A DNA stretch of 5,152 bases from a virus (lineage: Duplodnaviria; Heunggongvirae; Uroviricota; Caudoviricetes). Shown piece by piece: positions 1 to 5,152 of this stretch (its first letter is position 1; the number at the start of each line of letters is the position of its first letter). The notes under the pieces are model-generated. The model searched no databases. It was not told the DNA's origin and was given only the letters and a program-made list of their open reading frames with translations. Location: the IMG/VR virus record IMGVR_UViG_2713896909_000012; one strand, 5' to 3'. Made by a program: the position numbers and the translations under genes.

Positions 1-116
1 TCAAGATGGCGCTGGCAGGCCTGAATCACAAACTGGCAGGCCACAATCTTTCCGCGCACGACATCACGGGCATACTGATTGGCAGCATTTACGTTGGGGT
101 AAGATTTCCGGCTCAT
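1..116 (-). CDS. Terminase large subunit, N-terminal fragment (continues beyond window start)
   Basis: Not in the ORF track because it is truncated. The minus-strand frame starting at ATG 116..114 stays open to position 1 (about 38 codons, [38 protein letters not shown]). The ATG overlaps the terS stop in an ATGA arrangement, as expected for translationally coupled terS-terL. Position directly downstream of terS fits terL. Confidence 0.6.
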
Positions 117-607
117 GACTCGATGATTTTCAGAAACGGGTTAGTGGCTTTCTTCTGCCCCGCCAGGCCAATCAGACGCTGGCGGCTGCTGGGGTCGAGT
201 CCGAGCATTGCCCCCGTGCTGCTCATCTCGGACTCCTGTTCTTTCTTGGCGGTCAGCTCCGGGTTTTTGACCCTGCCGCCCATTGCACCGGTAATGGTGT
301 TGCCCTGGCTGGCAATATTTTTCACGGCACGTCGCCAGAACTCATAGGCCACGCACCACCGCTCAAGCACCGCGAAGTCAGTCACGCACAGCAGGCCCTG
401 ACCGCAGAGTTCTTTGGTTGTCAGTTGCCACATGATCGTGGCGAGAGGGAGATCTTCTTCAGCGAACCACTCCGGTGGCTCAACACCTTTGATGGGCGTA
501 AAAACAGGTTCATCTTTATTCAGGGCTCGCTTGCCGGGGTTTCCGGCCAGCGCCTTGCGCGCCGTTGGCTTGGGGCGACGCCCGGAACGCCCCGCCGTTC
601 CAGCCAT
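113..607 (-). CDS. Phage terminase small subunit (P27 / Terminase_4-like)
   Basis: The N-terminus [34 protein letters not shown] matches the remembered P27-family signature (GRPPKPT..K.L.GNPGKR.LN). The track starts at a GTG (616); I prefer the in-frame ATG at 607..605, which has an AGGAG Shine-Dalgarno 8 nt upstream. Sits between the HNH gene and terL. Confidence 0.8.
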
Positions 608-616
608 ATGCGGCAC

Positions 617-732
617 TCCTGGTTAAATTTCATTTTTCGCGGGTATAAAAAAACGATGGGGCGGGCAGTCCGGAAGACGTCAGGTCACAGAGATTTGACC
701 CGCCCCTCCCCTCAGACAGTTGAGAATCATTA
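617..732. other. Putative cos / packaging-recognition region (intergenic HNH-terS)
   Basis: 116 bp non-coding gap between the HNH stop (733) and the terS start. In HK97-like phages the cos site lies at this position. Contains a G-rich core (minus strand GAGGGGAGGGGCGGG), an A7/T7 tract at 647-653 and a GC-rich inverted repeat. Exact cut site cannot be determined from sequence. Confidence 0.35.
658..706. repeat. Inverted repeat GGGGCGGG (658-665) / CCCGCCCC (699-706), 33-nt spacer
   Basis: Perfect 8-bp GC-only inverted repeat read directly from the sequence, inside the putative cos region. Could be a terminase or IHF-type recognition element, or a stem structure. Confidence 0.5.
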
Positions 733-1083
733 TCACTTAAGCCGTTCACGGGCCGTCTTCGCCTTATGACACGGCCAGCACAGACTCTGCAGATTACAGT
801 CGGCATCAGTGCCGCCATGCGCTTTAGGGATGATGTGGTCAACAGTTTTCGCCTCGCGCACTACACCGGCACGCAAACACAACTGACACAGGCCTTTGTC
901 ACGCTTCAGCACGCGCGCGCGGATAACGTCCCACTTCGGACCATAACCGCGCTGATGACGGGATTGTCCTGGCTTGTATTGCTTCCAGCCTTCGCTTTTG
1001 TGGCTTTCGCAATAGCCTGACGGATCAGTAGTAGTATGGCGGCAACCGCGAACGCGGCAGGCTTTTGGGGTTCGTGGTGGCAT
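733..1083 (-). CDS. HNH endonuclease (packaging-associated)
   Basis: 116 aa with the canonical HNH core CQLC...DHIIPKAHGG...N...CWPCH (two Cys pairs, His-Asn-His). Lies immediately upstream of cos and terS, the arrangement in which HNH proteins assist terminase in HK97-like phages. Weak Shine-Dalgarno. Confidence 0.85.
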   Translation of the reverse strand: MPPRTPKACRVRGCRHTTTDPSGYCESHKSEGWKQYKPGQSRHQRGYGPKWDVIRARVLKRDKGLCQLCLRAGVVREAKTVDHIIPKAHGGTDADCNLQSLCWPCHKAKTARERLK

Positions 1084-1109
1084 TGGACACTATCGTTGCT
1101 TATGTTTAT

Positions 1110-1134
1110 AAAAAAAGCCCTGCTTACGCAGGGC
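1110..1134 (-). terminator. Rho-independent terminator (minus strand) closing the AT-rich island
   Basis: Perfect 7-bp stem GCCCTGC (1117-1123) / GCAGGGC (1128-1134) with a 4-nt loop. On the minus strand it is followed by T7 (plus-strand A7 at 1110-1116). Lies 29 nt downstream of the 76-aa gene stop and just upstream of the HNH start. Confidence 0.6.
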
Positions 1135-1162
1135 ATAAAAACTCAATATTGATACTATGAAT

Positions 1163-1393
1163 CTATTCCAAATCCCAACGTGGAATATTTATTATCTTAC
1201 CAGGAGTTAAGGAAAATTTGGCTTTCTTCAATATCTCAACATTAGCATCATCAGGAATCACTAAGAAGTACGAATAGTGCATTTCTCCAGAATTCCCATG
1301 ATTCTCCTGAATATCATCTTCGCTAACTCCCGACGCTTCAAGCTCATCAACTGTGAGTCCTAAATAATCAGCTAGCTTTTGTATATCAATCAT
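1163..1393 (-). CDS. Hypothetical small acidic protein (76 aa), possible N-terminal helix-turn-helix
   Basis: Strong Shine-Dalgarno GAGGTGA 7 nt upstream of ATG 1393. The N-terminus MIDIQKLADYLGLTVDELEASG resembles a MerR/Xis/XRE-type HTH helix-turn-helix (LA..LG.T...L...G). An intact ORF in AT-rich DNA argues for real coding. Function unknown. Confidence 0.55.
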   Translation of the reverse strand: MIDIQKLADYLGLTVDELEASGVSEDDIQENHGNSGEMHYSYFLVIPDDANVEILKKAKFSLTPGKIINIPRWDLE

Positions 1394-1692
1394 TAATCAC
1401 CTCACATATCAACGATGAGGCATCATCATCACACACTCTAGCAAAAGCTTCAACTTATTGTTATTATTAAAATAATTCTATACAAATTACATCTAATGTA
1501 TATCCTATGACACGACAGGTGCGAATATTAATGACAAACAACCATCGTATTTCTCTGAAAAATGGCAAGTATCACTCATTATTCCCCATGCATCTATGTA
1601 CTCTGTTCATGGTCAAGCCATAACTATATTTAATGCAAGAATACGGAAAGTTAAACAAATAAACGTTGATACACTAACATTCCACAAACTAG

Positions 1693-1986
1693 TTATACTA
1701 ATGAAGTAGGCAATTCTTCCTCTGAAATTCCCAATACTCTCATATCGGCCCGCAATTCTGCTATAGCGCACACTTCACTATAAGATGGTGCGGACTTCTC
1801 AGGATAAAGTACATACTCAAAATGCGGCGGAGGATTGAATATTAAAACCGAATACCCAGCTTCTTGAAGGATATTTTGGACGATTGAATAATAAGGTCTA
1901 CGCTCATCAAACCAATAACATCCATTCCTTTCTATTGACGCGATTGCTTTTTTTGCGTGCTTCTTATAAACCCATGCCTTATCCAT
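1693..1986 (-). CDS. Hypothetical protein (97 aa), function unknown
   Basis: A 97-codon open frame is unlikely by chance in AT-rich sequence. An AGGGAG motif lies about 15 nt upstream of the ATG, which is long spacing. No signal peptide, transmembrane segment or motif I recognise. Confidence 0.5.
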   Translation of the reverse strand: MDKAWVYKKHAKKAIASIERNGCYWFDERRPYYSIVQNILQEAGYSVLIFNPPPHFEYVLYPEKSAPSYSEVCAIAELRADMRVLGISEEELPTSLV

Positions 1987-2004
1987 ATCCTGTCAAAAAT
2001 CTCC

Positions 2005-2034
2005 CTACGTAATTGAACAATAACACTACGTAGT
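2005..2034. promoter_or_regulatory. Operator-like pair of TACGTA palindromes in the 5' leader of the 97-aa gene
   Basis: CTACGTA at 2005-2011 and the 10-bp perfect palindrome ACTACGTAGT at 2025-2034, centres 21 bp apart (two helical turns). Lies between a candidate -10 TATAAT (minus strand, 2118..2113) and the ATG at 1986. Confidence 0.25.
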
Positions 2035-2134
2035 AGTCATACACCAGAATATCTAACATATCAATCCAGCAACATTTAATTATTTTAACTTAATCTGAAA
2101 AAGTCTTCAGTGATTATAATTTCACACCTATATA

Positions 2135-2425
2135 TCAATTCAGTAACTTTTCAGAGCCTGTGGCCAGTCTTTGGACACGCTGTTGTTGGACAATAGCTCG
2201 AATATGAGACTTGTCCGTATTACATTGCCCTAATGCAGATAACAAGCTCGCATTTAAGTTGAGACTTGCACCATACGTCAGAGGGTCTGGTATGAGCGGT
2301 ATAGGTGTTTCAGAAATCAAACTAGTTGGTAGTGGTGTAACCGGAGTGCTCACGTAAACTGTCCGCGTACTTCCGCAACCGGTCAGCAGCGGCAGCAGGC
2401 ACAGCACGTGAAGCGCAATCATCAT
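2135..2425 (-). CDS. o-spanin (Rz1-like outer-membrane lipoprotein)
   Basis: Starts at the internal Met-Met of the 152-aa track ORF, in the +1 frame of Rz. Signal peptide MMIALHVLCLLPLLTGC with lipobox LTGC, followed by a proline-rich segment (TPVTPLPTSLISETPIPLIPDP). Extends 187 nt past the Rz stop. Confidence 0.7.
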   Translation of the reverse strand: MMIALHVLCLLPLLTGCGSTRTVYVSTPVTPLPTSLISETPIPLIPDPLTYGASLNLNASLLSALGQCNTDKSHIRAIVQQQRVQRLATGSEKLLN

Positions 2426-2702
2426 TCTCAACAGCCACTTTGATATCTTCCTGGGTTCTCTGTGACTCCAGTGCGATCTGCTGTTTTGCATGCTGGTTAG
2501 CCTCCAGAACTGTATTGACGATTTGTAGTGATTGCAGGACGTTATTGGTAATGGCTGTTGCTGATTCAGCATTTCGTACAGCCTCATCAGCACGTTTCTT
2601 TTCGTGCTGATATTTGCTGTAGTAGTGGTTGGTAGACCAGATGAAAGAACCGATGACAGTAAAGAAGAATGCAGAGATAGCCAGCTTATAGCTCAACTTC
2701 AT
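2322..2702 (-). CDS. i-spanin (Rz-like inner-membrane protein)
   Basis: N-terminal transmembrane segment (LAISAFFFTVIGSFIW) followed by a charged, coiled-coil-like periplasmic domain. Start overlaps the endolysin stop by 17 nt and the Rz1 start is embedded out of frame, as is typical for spanin pairs. Confidence 0.75.
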   Translation of the reverse strand: MKLSYKLAISAFFFTVIGSFIWSTNHYYSKYQHEKKRADEAVRNAESATAITNNVLQSLQIVNTVLEANQHAKQQIALESQRTQEDIKVAVENDDCASRAVPAAAADRLRKYADSLREHSGYTTTN

Positions 2703-3162
2703 TTACCACCCCACCAGCCTCTTTAAACCGGGAAATCAGGTCACCGATTTTATGTTCATACTGACCGTAACCTGCACCAGGTAACGACGCCCAAATATTG
2801 CTGCAACGATCGATAGCCTGACGAATATCGCCGCGATCAATCATCGGTAAAGCGCCACGCTCTTTAATCTGCTGTAATGCAACAGCATCCTGGCTTTTAG
2901 GAGAGAAGTCTGTCAGCCCTAACTGCTTGCGGTAAGCATCCCACCAGCGCGAAAGAAGTTGATAACGGCCTGCAGCTGTTGATTTGAGTTTCGGGTTTAG
3001 CGTGACAAGCTTGCGAGGGTGATCGGAGTAATCAGTGAAGAGTTCTCCACCGACAATAACATCATAACCGTGGTTACGTGTCGGTTGTCGCCCGTTATCC
3101 GTTCCTTCTGACCATGCCACCATATCGAGGAAAGCTTTACGCTGGGAATTTAGTACCTGCAT
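2686..3162 (-). CDS. R: Endolysin, lambda R-like lytic transglycosylase
   Basis: 158 aa, near-identical over long stretches to lambda R as I remember it (NQRKAFLDM.AWSEGTDNGRQ.TRNHGYDVIVGGELFTDYSDHPRKLVTLNPKLKS...RYQLLSRWWDAYRKQLGL). AAGGAG Shine-Dalgarno 6-7 nt upstream, overlapping the holin stop. Confidence 0.9.
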   Translation of the reverse strand: MQVLNSQRKAFLDMVAWSEGTDNGRQPTRNHGYDVIVGGELFTDYSDHPRKLVTLNPKLKSTAAGRYQLLSRWWDAYRKQLGLTDFSPKSQDAVALQQIKERGALPMIDRGDIRQAIDRCSNIWASLPGAGYGQYEHKIGDLISRFKEAGGVVNEVEL

Positions 3163-3165
3163 AAA

Positions 3166-3501
3166 TTACTCCTTAGAGCCACCAAACTTATTACCGATTA
3201 CTCTCATTGCAGCCCCACGAATAGCATCGACCCCGATCAGCCCAACGCCGCCACCAATGGCAACAGAAAGAGATTTAGGCCATCCGACATACTCAAGAGC
3301 GGATGCAAAAGTCAGCGTCAGAGCACCACAGAGCAAAATCTCGAGCGTTTTTCGTTTCCAGCCACCACCACCGCCAAAATAGGCAATGCGCAAGCCAGCC
3401 ATAACGATCGACATAATCACTGCGCCCAGCGGCGTATCTCCACGCCACCAGCTCTGGAACAACTCCAGCCAGTCCGGCCAGGTATTTGGGTTATGAGGCA
3501 T
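3166..3501 (-). CDS. Holin (class I-like, three predicted transmembrane segments)
   Basis: Directly upstream of the endolysin. Three hydrophobic segments (PLGAVIMSIVMAGLRIAYF, LEILLCGALTLTFASALEYVGW, LSVAIGGGVGLIGVDAI) and a charged C-terminus. I place the start at ATG 3501 (GAGGTGAGAG Shine-Dalgarno upstream) and not at the track start 3597, because the extension would span the terminator at 3549-3570 and overlap the methyltransferase gene. Confidence 0.7.
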   Translation of the reverse strand: MPHNPNTWPDWLELFQSWWRGDTPLGAVIMSIVMAGLRIAYFGGGGGWKRKTLEILLCGALTLTFASALEYVGWPKSLSVAIGGGVGLIGVDAIRGAAMRVIGNKFGGSKE

Positions 3502-3548
3502 TTCGTCATCTCTCACCTCGCGATATTTGCGGGTGCTGTGTTGGAAAT

Positions 3549-3570
3549 AAAAAGGCCACGCAACGTGGCC
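3549..3570 (-). terminator. Rho-independent terminator (minus strand) after the methyltransferase gene
   Basis: Perfect 7-bp stem GGCCACG (3554-3560) / CGTGGCC (3564-3570) with a 3-nt loop. On the minus strand it is followed by TTTTTATTT. Begins 8 nt after the methyltransferase stop. Confidence 0.6.
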
Positions 3571-3577
3571 ACCAGAA

Positions 3578-4630
3578 TTATTTCCCCACCAGTTCACTTA
3601 CCTCTTTCACCGTCTGATTAAACCGCTCTGACTCAAGTTCAACACCTAACGCCCGACGCCCCAGCGCCATTGCCGCTTTTATTGTGGAACCGGATCCCAT
3701 AAAGAAATCAGCAACCAGATCGCCTGGTCGACTACTGGCACTGATTATTTGCCGGAGCATATCCGCAGGCTTCTCACACGGATGTTTACCCGGGTAGAAC
3801 TGAACGGGTTTATGCGTCCAGACGTCGGTATAAGGCACGGAAACTGATACGGAGAAATAGCGCCGGAGAGTTTTAAACTCATCCAGCAATTCAGAATATT
3901 TGCGATTCAGTGAATCATAAGATGCCACCAGCTGGTGGTGTGGTTGTTCCAGTTGTTGTTCCTGAAACTTCTCTGCCGCTATACGGGAAAACAGTGCCTG
4001 CAACTTCCGGTAGTCAGCCTCATTCGGTAACTGCCACTGACTGGCACCAAACCAGTGGGAAACCATATTTTTCTTACCAGTGGCTTCGGCAATCTGTTTT
4101 GCCGTTATACCCAGTTCGGCACGAGCATCCCTGAAATACGAAATCAGCGGTGCCATTATGTGCTGTTTGAGTTGACTTTCTTTTGCCGCATAGCCGTCAC
4201 TTTTGCCGCGATATGGTCCCTGGTAATGTTCAGCAAACAGAACGCGTTCTGTTGCGGGAAAATATGCGCGCAGACTTTCTTTATTACACCCGTTCCATCG
4301 TCCGGACGGCTTCGCCCAGATAATATGGTTAAGAACGTTGAAACGTTCACGCATCATGATCTCGATATCAGATGCGAGGCGATGTCCACAGAACAGGTAA
4401 AGGCTTCCGGCAGGTTTCAGCACCCGCCAGAACTGGGCCAGACAGTGGTCCAGCCACTTCAGGTAATCTTCGTCCCCTTTCCACTGATTGTCCCAACCGT
4501 TGGGTTTCACCTTGAAGTACGGCGGATCGGTAACAATCAGGTCAATGGAATCATCAGGCAGGGACTGAATAAAATACAGGCAATCAGCGTTGATTAAATC
4601 AACACTGTTTATTTTTACAGTATTTTTCAT
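3578..4630 (-). CDS. DNA methyltransferase (amino-MTase, N6-adenine or N4-cytosine; DPPY N-terminal, FxGxG C-terminal)
   Basis: 350 aa. Catalytic motif IV DPPY (IDLIVTDPPYF) lies near the N-terminus and AdoMet motif I FFMGSGST near the C-terminus, the beta-class order. No restriction endonuclease gene is present in the window. Weak Shine-Dalgarno. Confidence 0.85.
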   Translation of the reverse strand: MKNTVKINSVDLINADCLYFIQSLPDDSIDLIVTDPPYFKVKPNGWDNQWKGDEDYLKWLDHCLAQFWRVLKPAGSLYLFCGHRLASDIEIMMRERFNVLNHIIWAKPSGRWNGCNKESLRAYFPATERVLFAEHYQGPYRGKSDGYAAKESQLKQHIMAPLISYFRDARAELGITAKQIAEATGKKNMVSHWFGASQWQLPNEADYRKLQALFSRIAAEKFQEQQLEQPHHQLVASYDSLNRKYSELLDEFKTLRRYFSVSVSVPYTDVWTHKPVQFYPGKHPCEKPADMLRQIISASSRPGDLVADFFMGSGSTIKAAMALGRRALGVELESERFNQTVKEVSELVGK

Positions 4631-4779
4631 GGATCAGTAAGCGTAACTCTGGTAGGCTCACTCTGCTTTTGCGCTAAAGCAGTGGGCCGTGGTTCGCTTG
4701 TGACCAGTAAGCATGAGCGAATGGCTGGCAGGTGCTACCAACACCCACCAGCCGCCCATTTTCACAAATTAAAAGTCCT

Positions 4780-4974
4780 TCATTGCTGAAGGCGTCTGTA
4801 ACAGCCGAACTGGTAATCTGCCAGCCCCGCCATAACCAACTGGGTCAGTATTAACTGACAGCGTTCGCGTGAAAGATATGTGTTTTGTGCAATCTCCCCG
4901 GCCGTTGTCGGTTCGATGCTTAATTCATTAAAAACAACTTTCGCCGTTTCTGTCATATCTTGCTGTTTTAGCAT
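4780..4974 (-). CDS. Small protein (64-72 aa), possible winged-helix (FaeA/PapI-like) DNA-binding protein
   Basis: The segment TTAGEIAQNTYLSRERCQLILTQLVMAGL resembles the recognition helix of FaeA/PapI-type small regulators. The track ORF starts at 4998; I prefer the in-frame ATG at 4974, which has AGAAGGA 8 nt upstream. The family assignment is from memory and weak. Confidence 0.45.
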   Translation of the reverse strand: MLKQQDMTETAKVVFNELSIEPTTAGEIAQNTYLSRERCQLILTQLVMAGLADYQFGCYRRLQQ

Positions 4975-5093
4975 GTCTTTTTTCCTTCTGGTTAACATGA
5001 CATACCAATAACTCTTGTCTAAAAAGCCAGCAAGATAAAAAGTCAGTATTCACGATCACCAGCGTGTTTACCGTACTGCCAACATCAAGGCAC

Positions 5094-5122
5094 AAAAAAA
5101 CCCGCTCAGCGGCGCTGAGGGA
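5094..5122 (-). terminator. Rho-independent terminator (minus strand), possibly the late-leader terminator (tR'-like)
   Basis: Stem CTCAGC (5105-5110) / GCTGAG (5114-5119) with a GGC loop and one extra flanking C-G pair across a mismatch. On the minus strand it is followed by CGGG then T7 (plus-strand A7 at 5094-5100). It lies upstream of the first gene in this late-strand cluster. Confidence 0.45.
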
Positions 5123-5152
5123 TCCCCATAAATCAGCGCTAATAAACCAACA

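Follow-up and report, generated by a model that had tools for sequence, protein, structure and literature searches.

A predicted M.EcoGII-type adenine methyltransferase and its candidate structured leader RNA in the late region of a temperate phage

In a 5,152-nucleotide (nt) stretch of Caudoviricetes DNA (IMG/VR record IMGVR_UViG_2713896909_000012; the whole stretch is referred to here as the window), we examined an orphan DNA methyltransferase gene that lies ahead of the holin gene and that, by sequence comparison, encodes a member of the M.EcoGII family and not an unknown enzyme. Taken as a whole, the evidence makes it probable that this is a non-specific enzyme of the M.EcoGII type that would be silent in the lysogen, expressed late in dependence on the antitermination protein Q, and used to protect progeny DNA. 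The methyltransferase finding itself is already known, being a characterized family in its usual genomic place, and the only feature that may be new is a conserved, structured leader directly ahead of the gene. The observation made in a preliminary description of this DNA, drawn up from the sequence alone, is confirmed as a whole, and the interpretation given there is partly supported.

Family membership and specificity

The open reading frame (ORF) is intact, begins with ATG, and encodes 350 amino acids (aa) on the minus strand (Table 1). Its DPPY motif (motif IV; aa 35-38, window positions 4517-4528) lies N-terminal to FMGSG, a motif of the FxGxG type (motif I; aa 310-314, positions 3689-3703), which is the order of the beta class. 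Pfam PF01555 (N6_N4_Mtase) matches aa 29-341 with an E value of 2.7e-42 (145.7 bits versus a cutoff of 26.7), and the protein is also matched by PHROG phrog_67, annotated as "DNA methyltransferase" (1.9e-101), and by PADLOC MTase_II, a REBASE-derived model of Type II methyltransferases (2.3e-152). A sequence search of the PDB recovered M.BceJIV (2.5e-24) and M.RsrI (3e-21), and a Foldseek search with a medium-confidence model of the protein gave CcrM, M.BceJIV, M.MboIIA, and M.RsrI as the best matches (E values of 1e-14 to 1e-11), with a probability of 1.00 for the first three. The two hallmarks of the beta class, motif order and an above-threshold profile match together with a Rossmann-type methyltransferase fold (the fold being that of the medium-confidence model), are therefore both present, and the orphan beta-class amino-methyltransferase proposed in the preliminary description is borne out. 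The ratio of nonsynonymous to synonymous substitution rates (dN/dS) is 0.07 versus SfV, 0.08 versus phage 1720a-02, and 0.12 in the central domain; the gene, its central part included, is under strong purifying selection.

Comparison with other sequences, a step that the preliminary description had suggested, places the protein in the M.EcoGII family, with approximately 81% identity to M.EcoGII over 349 aa, which spans the whole protein and its central domain. Identity to the reconstructed ancestors of that enzyme is approximately 88.5% (Anc291) and 70% (Anc284/SUPREM), and Q179 of the window protein is a residue typical of the M.EcoGII clade. High identity along the full length, on these approximate figures, is what membership of the family calls for. 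The window protein further resembles M.EcoGII and M.EcoGI in length (349-350 aa), in having DPPY first and FxGxG last, in being prophage-borne in a late region, and in having no nuclease partner; it differs from M.EcoGII at about 19% of residues, mainly in the central domain, and the window allele is known here from its sequence. Among phage proteins, it is 98% identical to SfV orf48 (NP_599080), 97-98% identical to the methyltransferases of mEp460 and the cdtI phage, and essentially no different from the group that these form with Ayreon and E. coli prophage genes (97-99% protein identity). The methyltransferase of phage 1720a-02, which Murray et al. called "very similar" to M.EcoGII (PMC5778455), is 81% identical without gaps.

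M.EcoGII, a 349-aa enzyme encoded by an E. coli O104:H4 prophage, methylates adenine whatever the surrounding sequence, in double-stranded DNA, single-stranded DNA (ssDNA), and RNA (PMC5778455). Both it and M.EcoGI come from prophages of the O104:H4 strain C227-11 (GenBank EGT69837.1; Murray et al. 2018, PMC5778455). All six reconstructed ancestors that were tested were reported to methylate both DNA and RNA, and no sequence motif was found for M.EcoGII, Anc291, or SUPREM (PMC11551740). EspM and other natural homologs placed between the nodes Anc291 and Anc289 are likewise non-specific, according to a 2026 paper, and methylome papers already extend the label "nonspecific" to homologs with about 93% amino acid similarity to M.EcoGI and M.EcoGII. 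Since its relatives on both sides are experimentally non-specific, the window protein is bracketed by non-specific enzymes, and by this phylogenetic argument it most likely methylates adenine without regard to sequence context. The earlier statement that the target sequence cannot be read from the protein is thereby superseded, as the characterized members of the M.EcoGII family lack a target sequence and modify A irrespective of its surroundings (PMC5778455, PMC11551740, PMC13540299).

The central portion of roughly 150 aa, which the preliminary description presumed to be a target-recognition domain and could not match to anything, has in fact been modeled for M.EcoGII. In the published AlphaFold model, a Rossmann domain (residues 1-134 and 260-349) is accompanied by a four-helix helix-turn-helix (HTH) domain (residues 160-237) and a long charged linker, and a positively charged surface has been proposed to hold nucleic acid without reading its bases (PMC11551740). 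Our AlphaFold model of the window protein is likewise helical in this region (helices 145-172, 176-183, 188-192, 203-222, and 230-254), with pLDDT confidence values there of 54-81, and a weak HTH_3 match at aa 166-192 (E value of 0.011) falls below threshold. A search of the PDB found no structure of an M.EcoGII-type enzyme.

Late-region position and expression

The window is a temperate-phage late region, and an E. coli C11 prophage matches its positions 1-5114 at 99.55% identity without gaps. In that prophage, an integrase and early genes, a Dam-type methyltransferase, RusA, and a Q-type antitermination protein are followed by a small ORF, the methyltransferase, holin, endolysin, spanin, and two further small ORFs, and then by an HNH gene, the small and large terminase genes, and the head and tail genes. 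The placement of the gene in a late operon upstream of the holin, as first described, is thus upheld by Q on one side and by lysis and packaging genes on the other. The same order of Q, terminator, small ORF (where present), methyltransferase, terminator, and holin is found in SfV and mEp460, and in each of these three well-annotated relatives the module has Q before it and the lysis genes after it. N15 has a late promoter, a terminator, a methyltransferase of about 56% identity, a second terminator, and the holin; PY54 has a homolog of about 60% identity upstream of its lysis genes; and phage 1720a-02 carries the same module between Q and stx2, with the same small ORF and leader.

The two terminators that had been noted on either side of the gene were both recovered by our scan, fold as hairpins followed by T-runs, and are annotated in SfV. 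The upstream one has a folding energy of -14.4 kcal/mol (z -1.4, weak on its own); SfV has a terminator annotated at the same place, 107 nt after Q, and in the C11 prophage the antitermination protein gene lies immediately upstream of it. The Q gene and most of the pR' promoter are beyond the end of the window. This terminator probably corresponds to tR', which is read through by Q-modified polymerase. The downstream terminator (-12.5 kcal/mol, z -3.05) is annotated as rho-independent in SfV, and N15 has a terminator at the equivalent position after gp52. A consensus scan found no sigma-70-like promoter between the upstream terminator and the methyltransferase gene.

We sampled 80 loci from different Enterobacterales species, in which methyltransferase identity ranges from 62 to 91%. 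In 50 of them the methyltransferase gene is preceded by a Q-like gene of the same strand, and in 12 of 15 diverse loci it is succeeded by the genes for holin, endolysin, and spanin. By DNA similarity, the methyltransferase is present in 2460 of 5426 complete E. coli genomes (about 45%), with up to 8 copies per genome.

The absence of a restriction endonuclease, remarked on from the start, holds for the window and extends beyond it: none is present in the 25 kb around the gene in the C11 prophage, and no nuclease gene lies beside the methyltransferase in the window, the C11 prophage, SfV, mEp460, N15, or PY54. What defines a Type II restriction-modification system, an adjacent matching endonuclease, is therefore lacking. 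We considered the HNH endonuclease gene of the window as a cognate nuclease and rejected it, as it lies 2.5 kb away past the lysis cassette and adjoins a P27-type small terminase gene, and PADLOC nuclease models give generic HNH-motif matches only (E values of about 1e-5). HNH and P27-family small terminase together form a packaging pair of the HK97/SfV type and not a restriction enzyme.

These observations lead us to propose the following course of events. In the lysogen, transcription would end ahead of the gene, since the gene stands behind the Q gene and a terminator, and the toxic enzyme would not be made. After induction, Q-modified RNA polymerase would pass the upstream terminator or terminators, the methyltransferase gene, and the downstream terminator, and continue into the holin, endolysin, spanin, and packaging genes, while the folded leader, by pairing with the 10 nt before the AUG, would probably add a translational brake. 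The enzyme would carry out S-adenosylmethionine (SAM)-dependent N6-adenine methylation in essentially any context, possibly also on ssDNA and RNA, with the small helical HTH domain and charged linker gripping nucleic acid non-specifically instead of a domain that reads sequence. Once the phage DNA has replicated, and shortly before it is packaged, many of its adenines would be methylated, and progeny DNA should then withstand restriction by the many Type I, II, and III systems that are blocked by methylated adenines.

A gene reached only by Q-modified, terminator-resistant polymerase is the simplest reading of this arrangement and fits the silence reported in lysogens. The lysogen does not express M.EcoGII, whose expression is harmful (PMC5778455), and for M.EcoGI, M.EcoGII, and M.EcoMV, neither a methylation signal nor a transcript by reverse transcription-PCR (RT-PCR) was detected in lysogens, with toxicity upon expression (PMC5778455, PMC4659465, PMC12707154). 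For M.EcoMV, which is 99% identical, methylome papers report the absence of both a methylation signal and a lysogen transcript. By its terminators, its lack of a promoter, and its homologs, the window copy is expected to be silent in the lysogen too. Methylation before packaging as a means of blunting restriction in the next host is the published interpretation (PMC5778455 and PMC12707154 among the sources).

A conserved leader RNA

Directly ahead of the methyltransferase start codon, alignments and a covariance model delineate a structured 5' leader with three hairpins (P1 to P3) and a long-range, pseudoknot-like helix (Table 1). The leader is more conserved than the proteins that flank it, and its invariant blocks are kept where the small upstream ORF is just 34-88% identical. 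Built from 34 copies, the model has a match in 59 of the 80 genome loci, among them 20 of the 28 loci without the small ORF, and each match lies immediately 5' of the methyltransferase ATG and on the strand of the gene. Matches were also obtained in SfV, mEp460, 1720a-02, and PY54 (49 bits) and, weakly, in N15 (26 bits), and none in the Photorhabdus and Xenorhabdus loci. Across complete E. coli genomes, the leader is present in 2689 of 5426, at 3971 places, a number similar to that of the methyltransferase, and RefSeq carries no annotation at the leader positions. In Stx2c phages (e.g., LC727876.1, positions 16607-17792), the leader is 100% identical to that of the window over 136 nt, in contrast to only 84.9% for the methyltransferase protein, which suggests that the leader either marks a recombination junction or is very strongly constrained.

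Support for the proposed structure comes from covariation. In a model-fitted alignment of 65 distinct sequences, 25 of the 36 proposed pairs changed on both sides, 88.9% of cells pair versus 23-42% when the partners are slid by 1-3 columns, and none of 500 shuffles reached the observed pairing values. As a structure-blind check, 22 diverse leader copies were aligned with MAFFT; compensatory changes were present in 8 of 9 pairs of P1, in 3 of 6 pairs of P2 (one position being C-G in 11 sequences, U-A in 6, A-U in 1, and U-G in 1), and in 2 of 5 pairs of the inner P3 stem. Pairing is 88-95% in the helix formed by GGUCA.A of the P2 loop and the 10 nt that precede the AUG, and a position of this helix changes from A-U to G-C in 7 sequences. 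At one position of the helix, G-U is the most frequent pair, which favors the sense strand and hence an mRNA. The single-sequence minimum free energy is -55.4 kcal/mol (z -3.3), and the methyltransferase start codon is without a Shine-Dalgarno sequence.

Known elements did not account for the leader. An Rfam search of the region with permissive filters gave no match at an E value of ≤1, no tRNA or transfer-messenger RNA was found there, and the conserved strings of the leader were not found in a text search of 8 million papers. The prophage small RNAs AgvB/AsxR and Pas lie between moron genes and the holin and not at this place. A coding ORF (ATG at 4759, 33 codons) was also rejected, since the invariant blocks are contiguous without a third-position pattern, loop lengths vary by single nucleotides, and the stems show compensatory changes. 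RNAalifold offered a helix, AUGGGC/GCUCAU, in which no pair changed on both sides and which competes with P2, where such pairs occur; this helix was set aside. Two nucleotides are claimed both by P2 and by the inner portion of the long-range helix, so that the architecture is provisional, and much of the covariation comes from a few clades.

The leader is probably a translational brake on a toxic enzyme and in outline resembles the Mu system discussed below. We put forward more tentatively, as possible rather than probable, the full proposal that this is an undescribed leader of about 130 nt, with three hairpins and a pseudoknot-like helix, acting as a translational gate on a toxic non-specific enzyme and representing a second, independent solution of the Mu com/mom kind. 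Such a gate could possibly be opened by a protein, by a ligand such as SAM or S-adenosylhomocysteine (SAH), or by the methyltransferase itself.

Related systems

Mom makes N6-carbamoylmethyl-adenine, and the start site of Mu mom is locked in an mRNA hairpin that the small Com protein opens. The mom/com system of phage Mu, known from the work of Hattman and of Wulczyn & Kahmann, provides a toxic, broadly acting DNA-modification enzyme that is silent in lysogens and expressed late. The two enzymes have already been paired in print, Mom and M.EcoGII being described as "silent in lysogens and toxic" (PMC12707154). The window gene would share with mom a toxic temperate-phage modification enzyme, late expression, and a start site held in mRNA structure, the likeness of the leader being one of outline only; the protein and its chemistry, in contrast, are unrelated. 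The small ORF directly upstream of the leader suggested itself as a Com-like activator, but this candidate is weakened, and such a role is not supported, because the ORF is undetectable in 28 of 80 loci, most of which keep the leader.

M.EcoGIX, M.BceJIII (plasmid-borne and of relaxed specificity; PMC7736820), T4 Dam, and P1 Dmt are likewise orphan adenine methyltransferases of mobile elements and are thought to shield incoming DNA from restriction. They differ in belonging to other families, in being specific for GATC or for single strands, and in their genomic contexts. The Dam-type gene of the C11 prophage is a separate gene in the early region. SfV is similar to the window in its terminators, in its small ORF (orf47), and in the position of the module ahead of the lysis genes, whereas it lacks a low-GC insert that the window carries between Rz/Rz1 and the HNH gene. 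The linear-plasmid prophages N15 (gp52) and PY54 (gp60) have homologs of 55-60% identity upstream of their lysis genes, with more divergent sequences, and N15 has no orf47-like gene between terminator and methyltransferase. At the N15 locus (L086, 2501-3589), the protein match to gp52 begins at 2501 and the annotated coding sequence at 2735; judged from this comparison, the GenBank start of gp52 is probably about 78 codons too short.

Alternative explanations

Defective prophages are common in E. coli, and M.EcoGII itself has been described as lying on a "cryptic prophage," so that the gene might be thought a decaying, non-functional remnant; with an intact ORF, every catalytic motif in place, dN/dS of 0.07-0.12, and carriage by the plaque-forming phages SfV, mEp460, N15, and PY54, we find this scarcely credible. 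The preliminary description leaned toward a sequence-specific orphan enzyme whose central domain is a true target-recognition domain for some motif. The protein does show the arrangement that is classic for the beta class, a domain separating motif IV from motif I, that domain diverges fastest and is the part most different from M.EcoGII (dN of 0.19, within a protein in which about 19% of residues differ), RefSeq often names such proteins "site-specific DNA-methyltransferase," and M.PflMI, similar in its predicted fold (PMC11551740), is site-specific. The RefSeq name, however, is a generic label, and M.PflMI, the closest relative whose recognition site is confirmed, shares only 27% identity with M.EcoGII and has no charged linker (PMC11551740). 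Identity of the window protein to M.EcoGII (81%) and Anc291 (88%) extends across the central domain, and all tested enzymes from M.EcoGII to nodes far deeper than the window protein are non-specific; a specific enzyme is therefore unlikely. The sequence divergence nevertheless weighs against an M.EcoGII-type, late-acting, protective enzyme, and so do several other points. Non-specificity is carried over from enzymes 70-88% identical to the window protein, and not from this allele or SfV orf48; the M.EcoGII and ancestor sequences were taken from a machine-read supplement (PMC11551740) with reading errors, which is why the identities are approximate; and the structure model is of medium confidence (mean pLDDT of 68.6) because its alignment was shallow, made up only of sequences of 76% identity or more. 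That this copy is expressed late is deduced from gene order and consensus scans, our literature search found no report of hypermethylated virion DNA for such a phage, and transformation of E. coli by plasmid DNA heavily modified with N6-methyladenine is poorer by 4-5 orders of magnitude, so that heavy methylation could also be costly.

Two further explanations accept a non-specific enzyme and give it another purpose. It is conceivable that the physiological substrate is RNA or ssDNA, such as late mRNAs, host RNAs, or replication and packaging intermediates, and that the purpose is not restriction escape. In vitro, M.EcoGII and its ancestors show robust activity on ssDNA and RNA, and our literature search found no direct in vivo test of phage protection or other anti-restriction experiment in vivo, which also counts against the protective role. 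The activity of M.EcoGII is higher on DNA than on RNA, however, no evidence points to any RNA target, and the place of the gene just ahead of lysis and packaging, together with its conservation in temperate phages that change hosts, fits DNA protection, and we therefore consider another substrate quite unlikely. Very unlikely, in our view, is an epigenetic regulator made at low levels in the prophage state, an effect on host expression in lysogens having been raised in the preliminary description. M.EcoGIII of the O104:H4 Stx phage does change the expression of about 1,950 genes, but the window gene stands behind one or two terminators without a promoter-like site of its own, its start codon region is base-paired in the conserved leader, and the three homologs M.EcoGI, M.EcoGII, and M.EcoMV gave neither methylation signal nor RT-PCR product in lysogens and are toxic when expressed.

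Significance

The M.EcoGII family is characterized, sold as a reagent, and widely used for chromatin footprinting, and the window allele is nearly the same as a gene whose annotation in phage SfV goes back to 2002. Annotation pipelines still call such proteins "site-specific," and the evidence points to no specificity. With copies in about 45% of complete E. coli genomes, the family matters for the reading of methylomes after prophage induction. Papers on the late regions of Shiga toxin (Stx) phages (PMC6266700, PMC8136144) make no mention of the methyltransferase. If confirmed, the leader would explain how phages restrain so dangerous an enzyme, and it might serve as a compact regulatory part and as a handle for the safe expression of M.EcoGII-type enzymes.

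Neighboring features

Three features between the upstream terminator and the methyltransferase gene had been passed over by the earlier reader, namely the leader, a small winged-helix ORF, and a third terminator-like hairpin. The small ORF belongs to phrog_331, annotated as function unknown; its DprA_WH match is weak (E value of 0.004), and its homologs go under the name "TrmB family transcriptional regulator" at NCBI. In 52 of the 80 loci it immediately precedes the methyltransferase gene, of which it is an optional companion. The third hairpin folds weakly (-7.7 kcal/mol, z -2.2) and brings the terminator-like sites between Q and holin in this window to three. Loci without the small ORF also have a hairpin and T-run directly ahead of the leader (L053, L055, L056, and L071, near 4820-4850), and as many loci share this arrangement, terminator, leader, methyltransferase, and terminator seem to make up the conserved unit.

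Table 1. Positions of the methyltransferase gene, its leader, and neighboring features in the window
Feature	Position	Strand	Basis or remark
Predicted M.EcoGII-family beta-class N6-adenine methyltransferase, 350 aa	3578..4630	-	motifs, profiles, sequence comparison, model
Predicted central helical HTH/linker region of the methyltransferase	roughly aa 135-259	-	model and weak HTH_3 match
Structured 5' leader of methyltransferase mRNA, 132 nt, ending at the base before ATG	4631..4762	-	alignments, covariance model
Leader P1 hairpin	4753-4742 with 4734-4723	-	
Leader P2	4721-4716 with 4698-4693	-	
Leader P3	4688-4677 with 4668-4655	-	
Leader long-range/pseudoknot helix	4705-4697 (GGUCACAAG) with 4641-4632 (CUUACUGAUC)	-	second strand is the 10 nt directly before AUG
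Leader copies in other loci	L003:2914-3063, L004:3499-3648, L002:5023-5173, L085:2350-2500		
Terminator-like hairpin and U-rich run	4765..4792	-	stem 4792-4777; overlaps small-ORF stop, immediately 5' of leader
Small winged-helix ORF, 64 aa (72 aa from alternative start 4998)	4780..4974	-	phrog_331, 5.4e-34; corresponds to SfV orf47
Intrinsic terminator, probably tR'	5094..5122	-	scan; stem 5119-5105, then T-run
Intrinsic terminator between methyltransferase stop (3578) and holin start (3501)	3544..3570	-	scan; stem 3570-3554, then T-run
Lambda-family holin, first lysis-cassette gene	3166..3501	-	TIGR01594, 1.8e-36; RefSeq start in C11 prophage
Endolysin	2686-3162		downstream of holin
Rz-like spanin	2322-2702		downstream of endolysin
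Small ORF, no family	1693-1986		in low-GC stretch
Small ORF, phrog_31861	1163-1393		in low-GC stretch
HNH endonuclease	733-1083		adjoins P27-family small terminase
P27-family small terminase	113-616		beside HNH

For the holin, a 143-aa ORF (GTG at 3597) was rejected as an over-extension through the terminator that overlaps the 3' end of the methyltransferase gene, the real start being at 3501, and a lambda-like dual start (M-T-K-M, ATG at 3509) was rejected as out of frame with the holin ORF. Partly overlapping Rz in another frame, an ORF at 2135-2425 carries the lipoprotein signal LLPLLTGCGS; it is named "peptidase" by RefSeq in the C11 prophage and is most likely the Rz1 outer-membrane spanin.

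The final 38 nt of the window (5115-5152) depart from the C11 prophage, exactly at the upstream terminator, and mark this point as a mosaic junction of the Q/pR' and late modules. The window is low in GC at about positions 1100-2250 (35-38% versus about 50% elsewhere), a stretch flanked by Rz/Rz1 and the HNH gene. SfV has no such stretch, its Rz1 and HNH genes lying side by side, and the stretch therefore has the look of an inserted moron.

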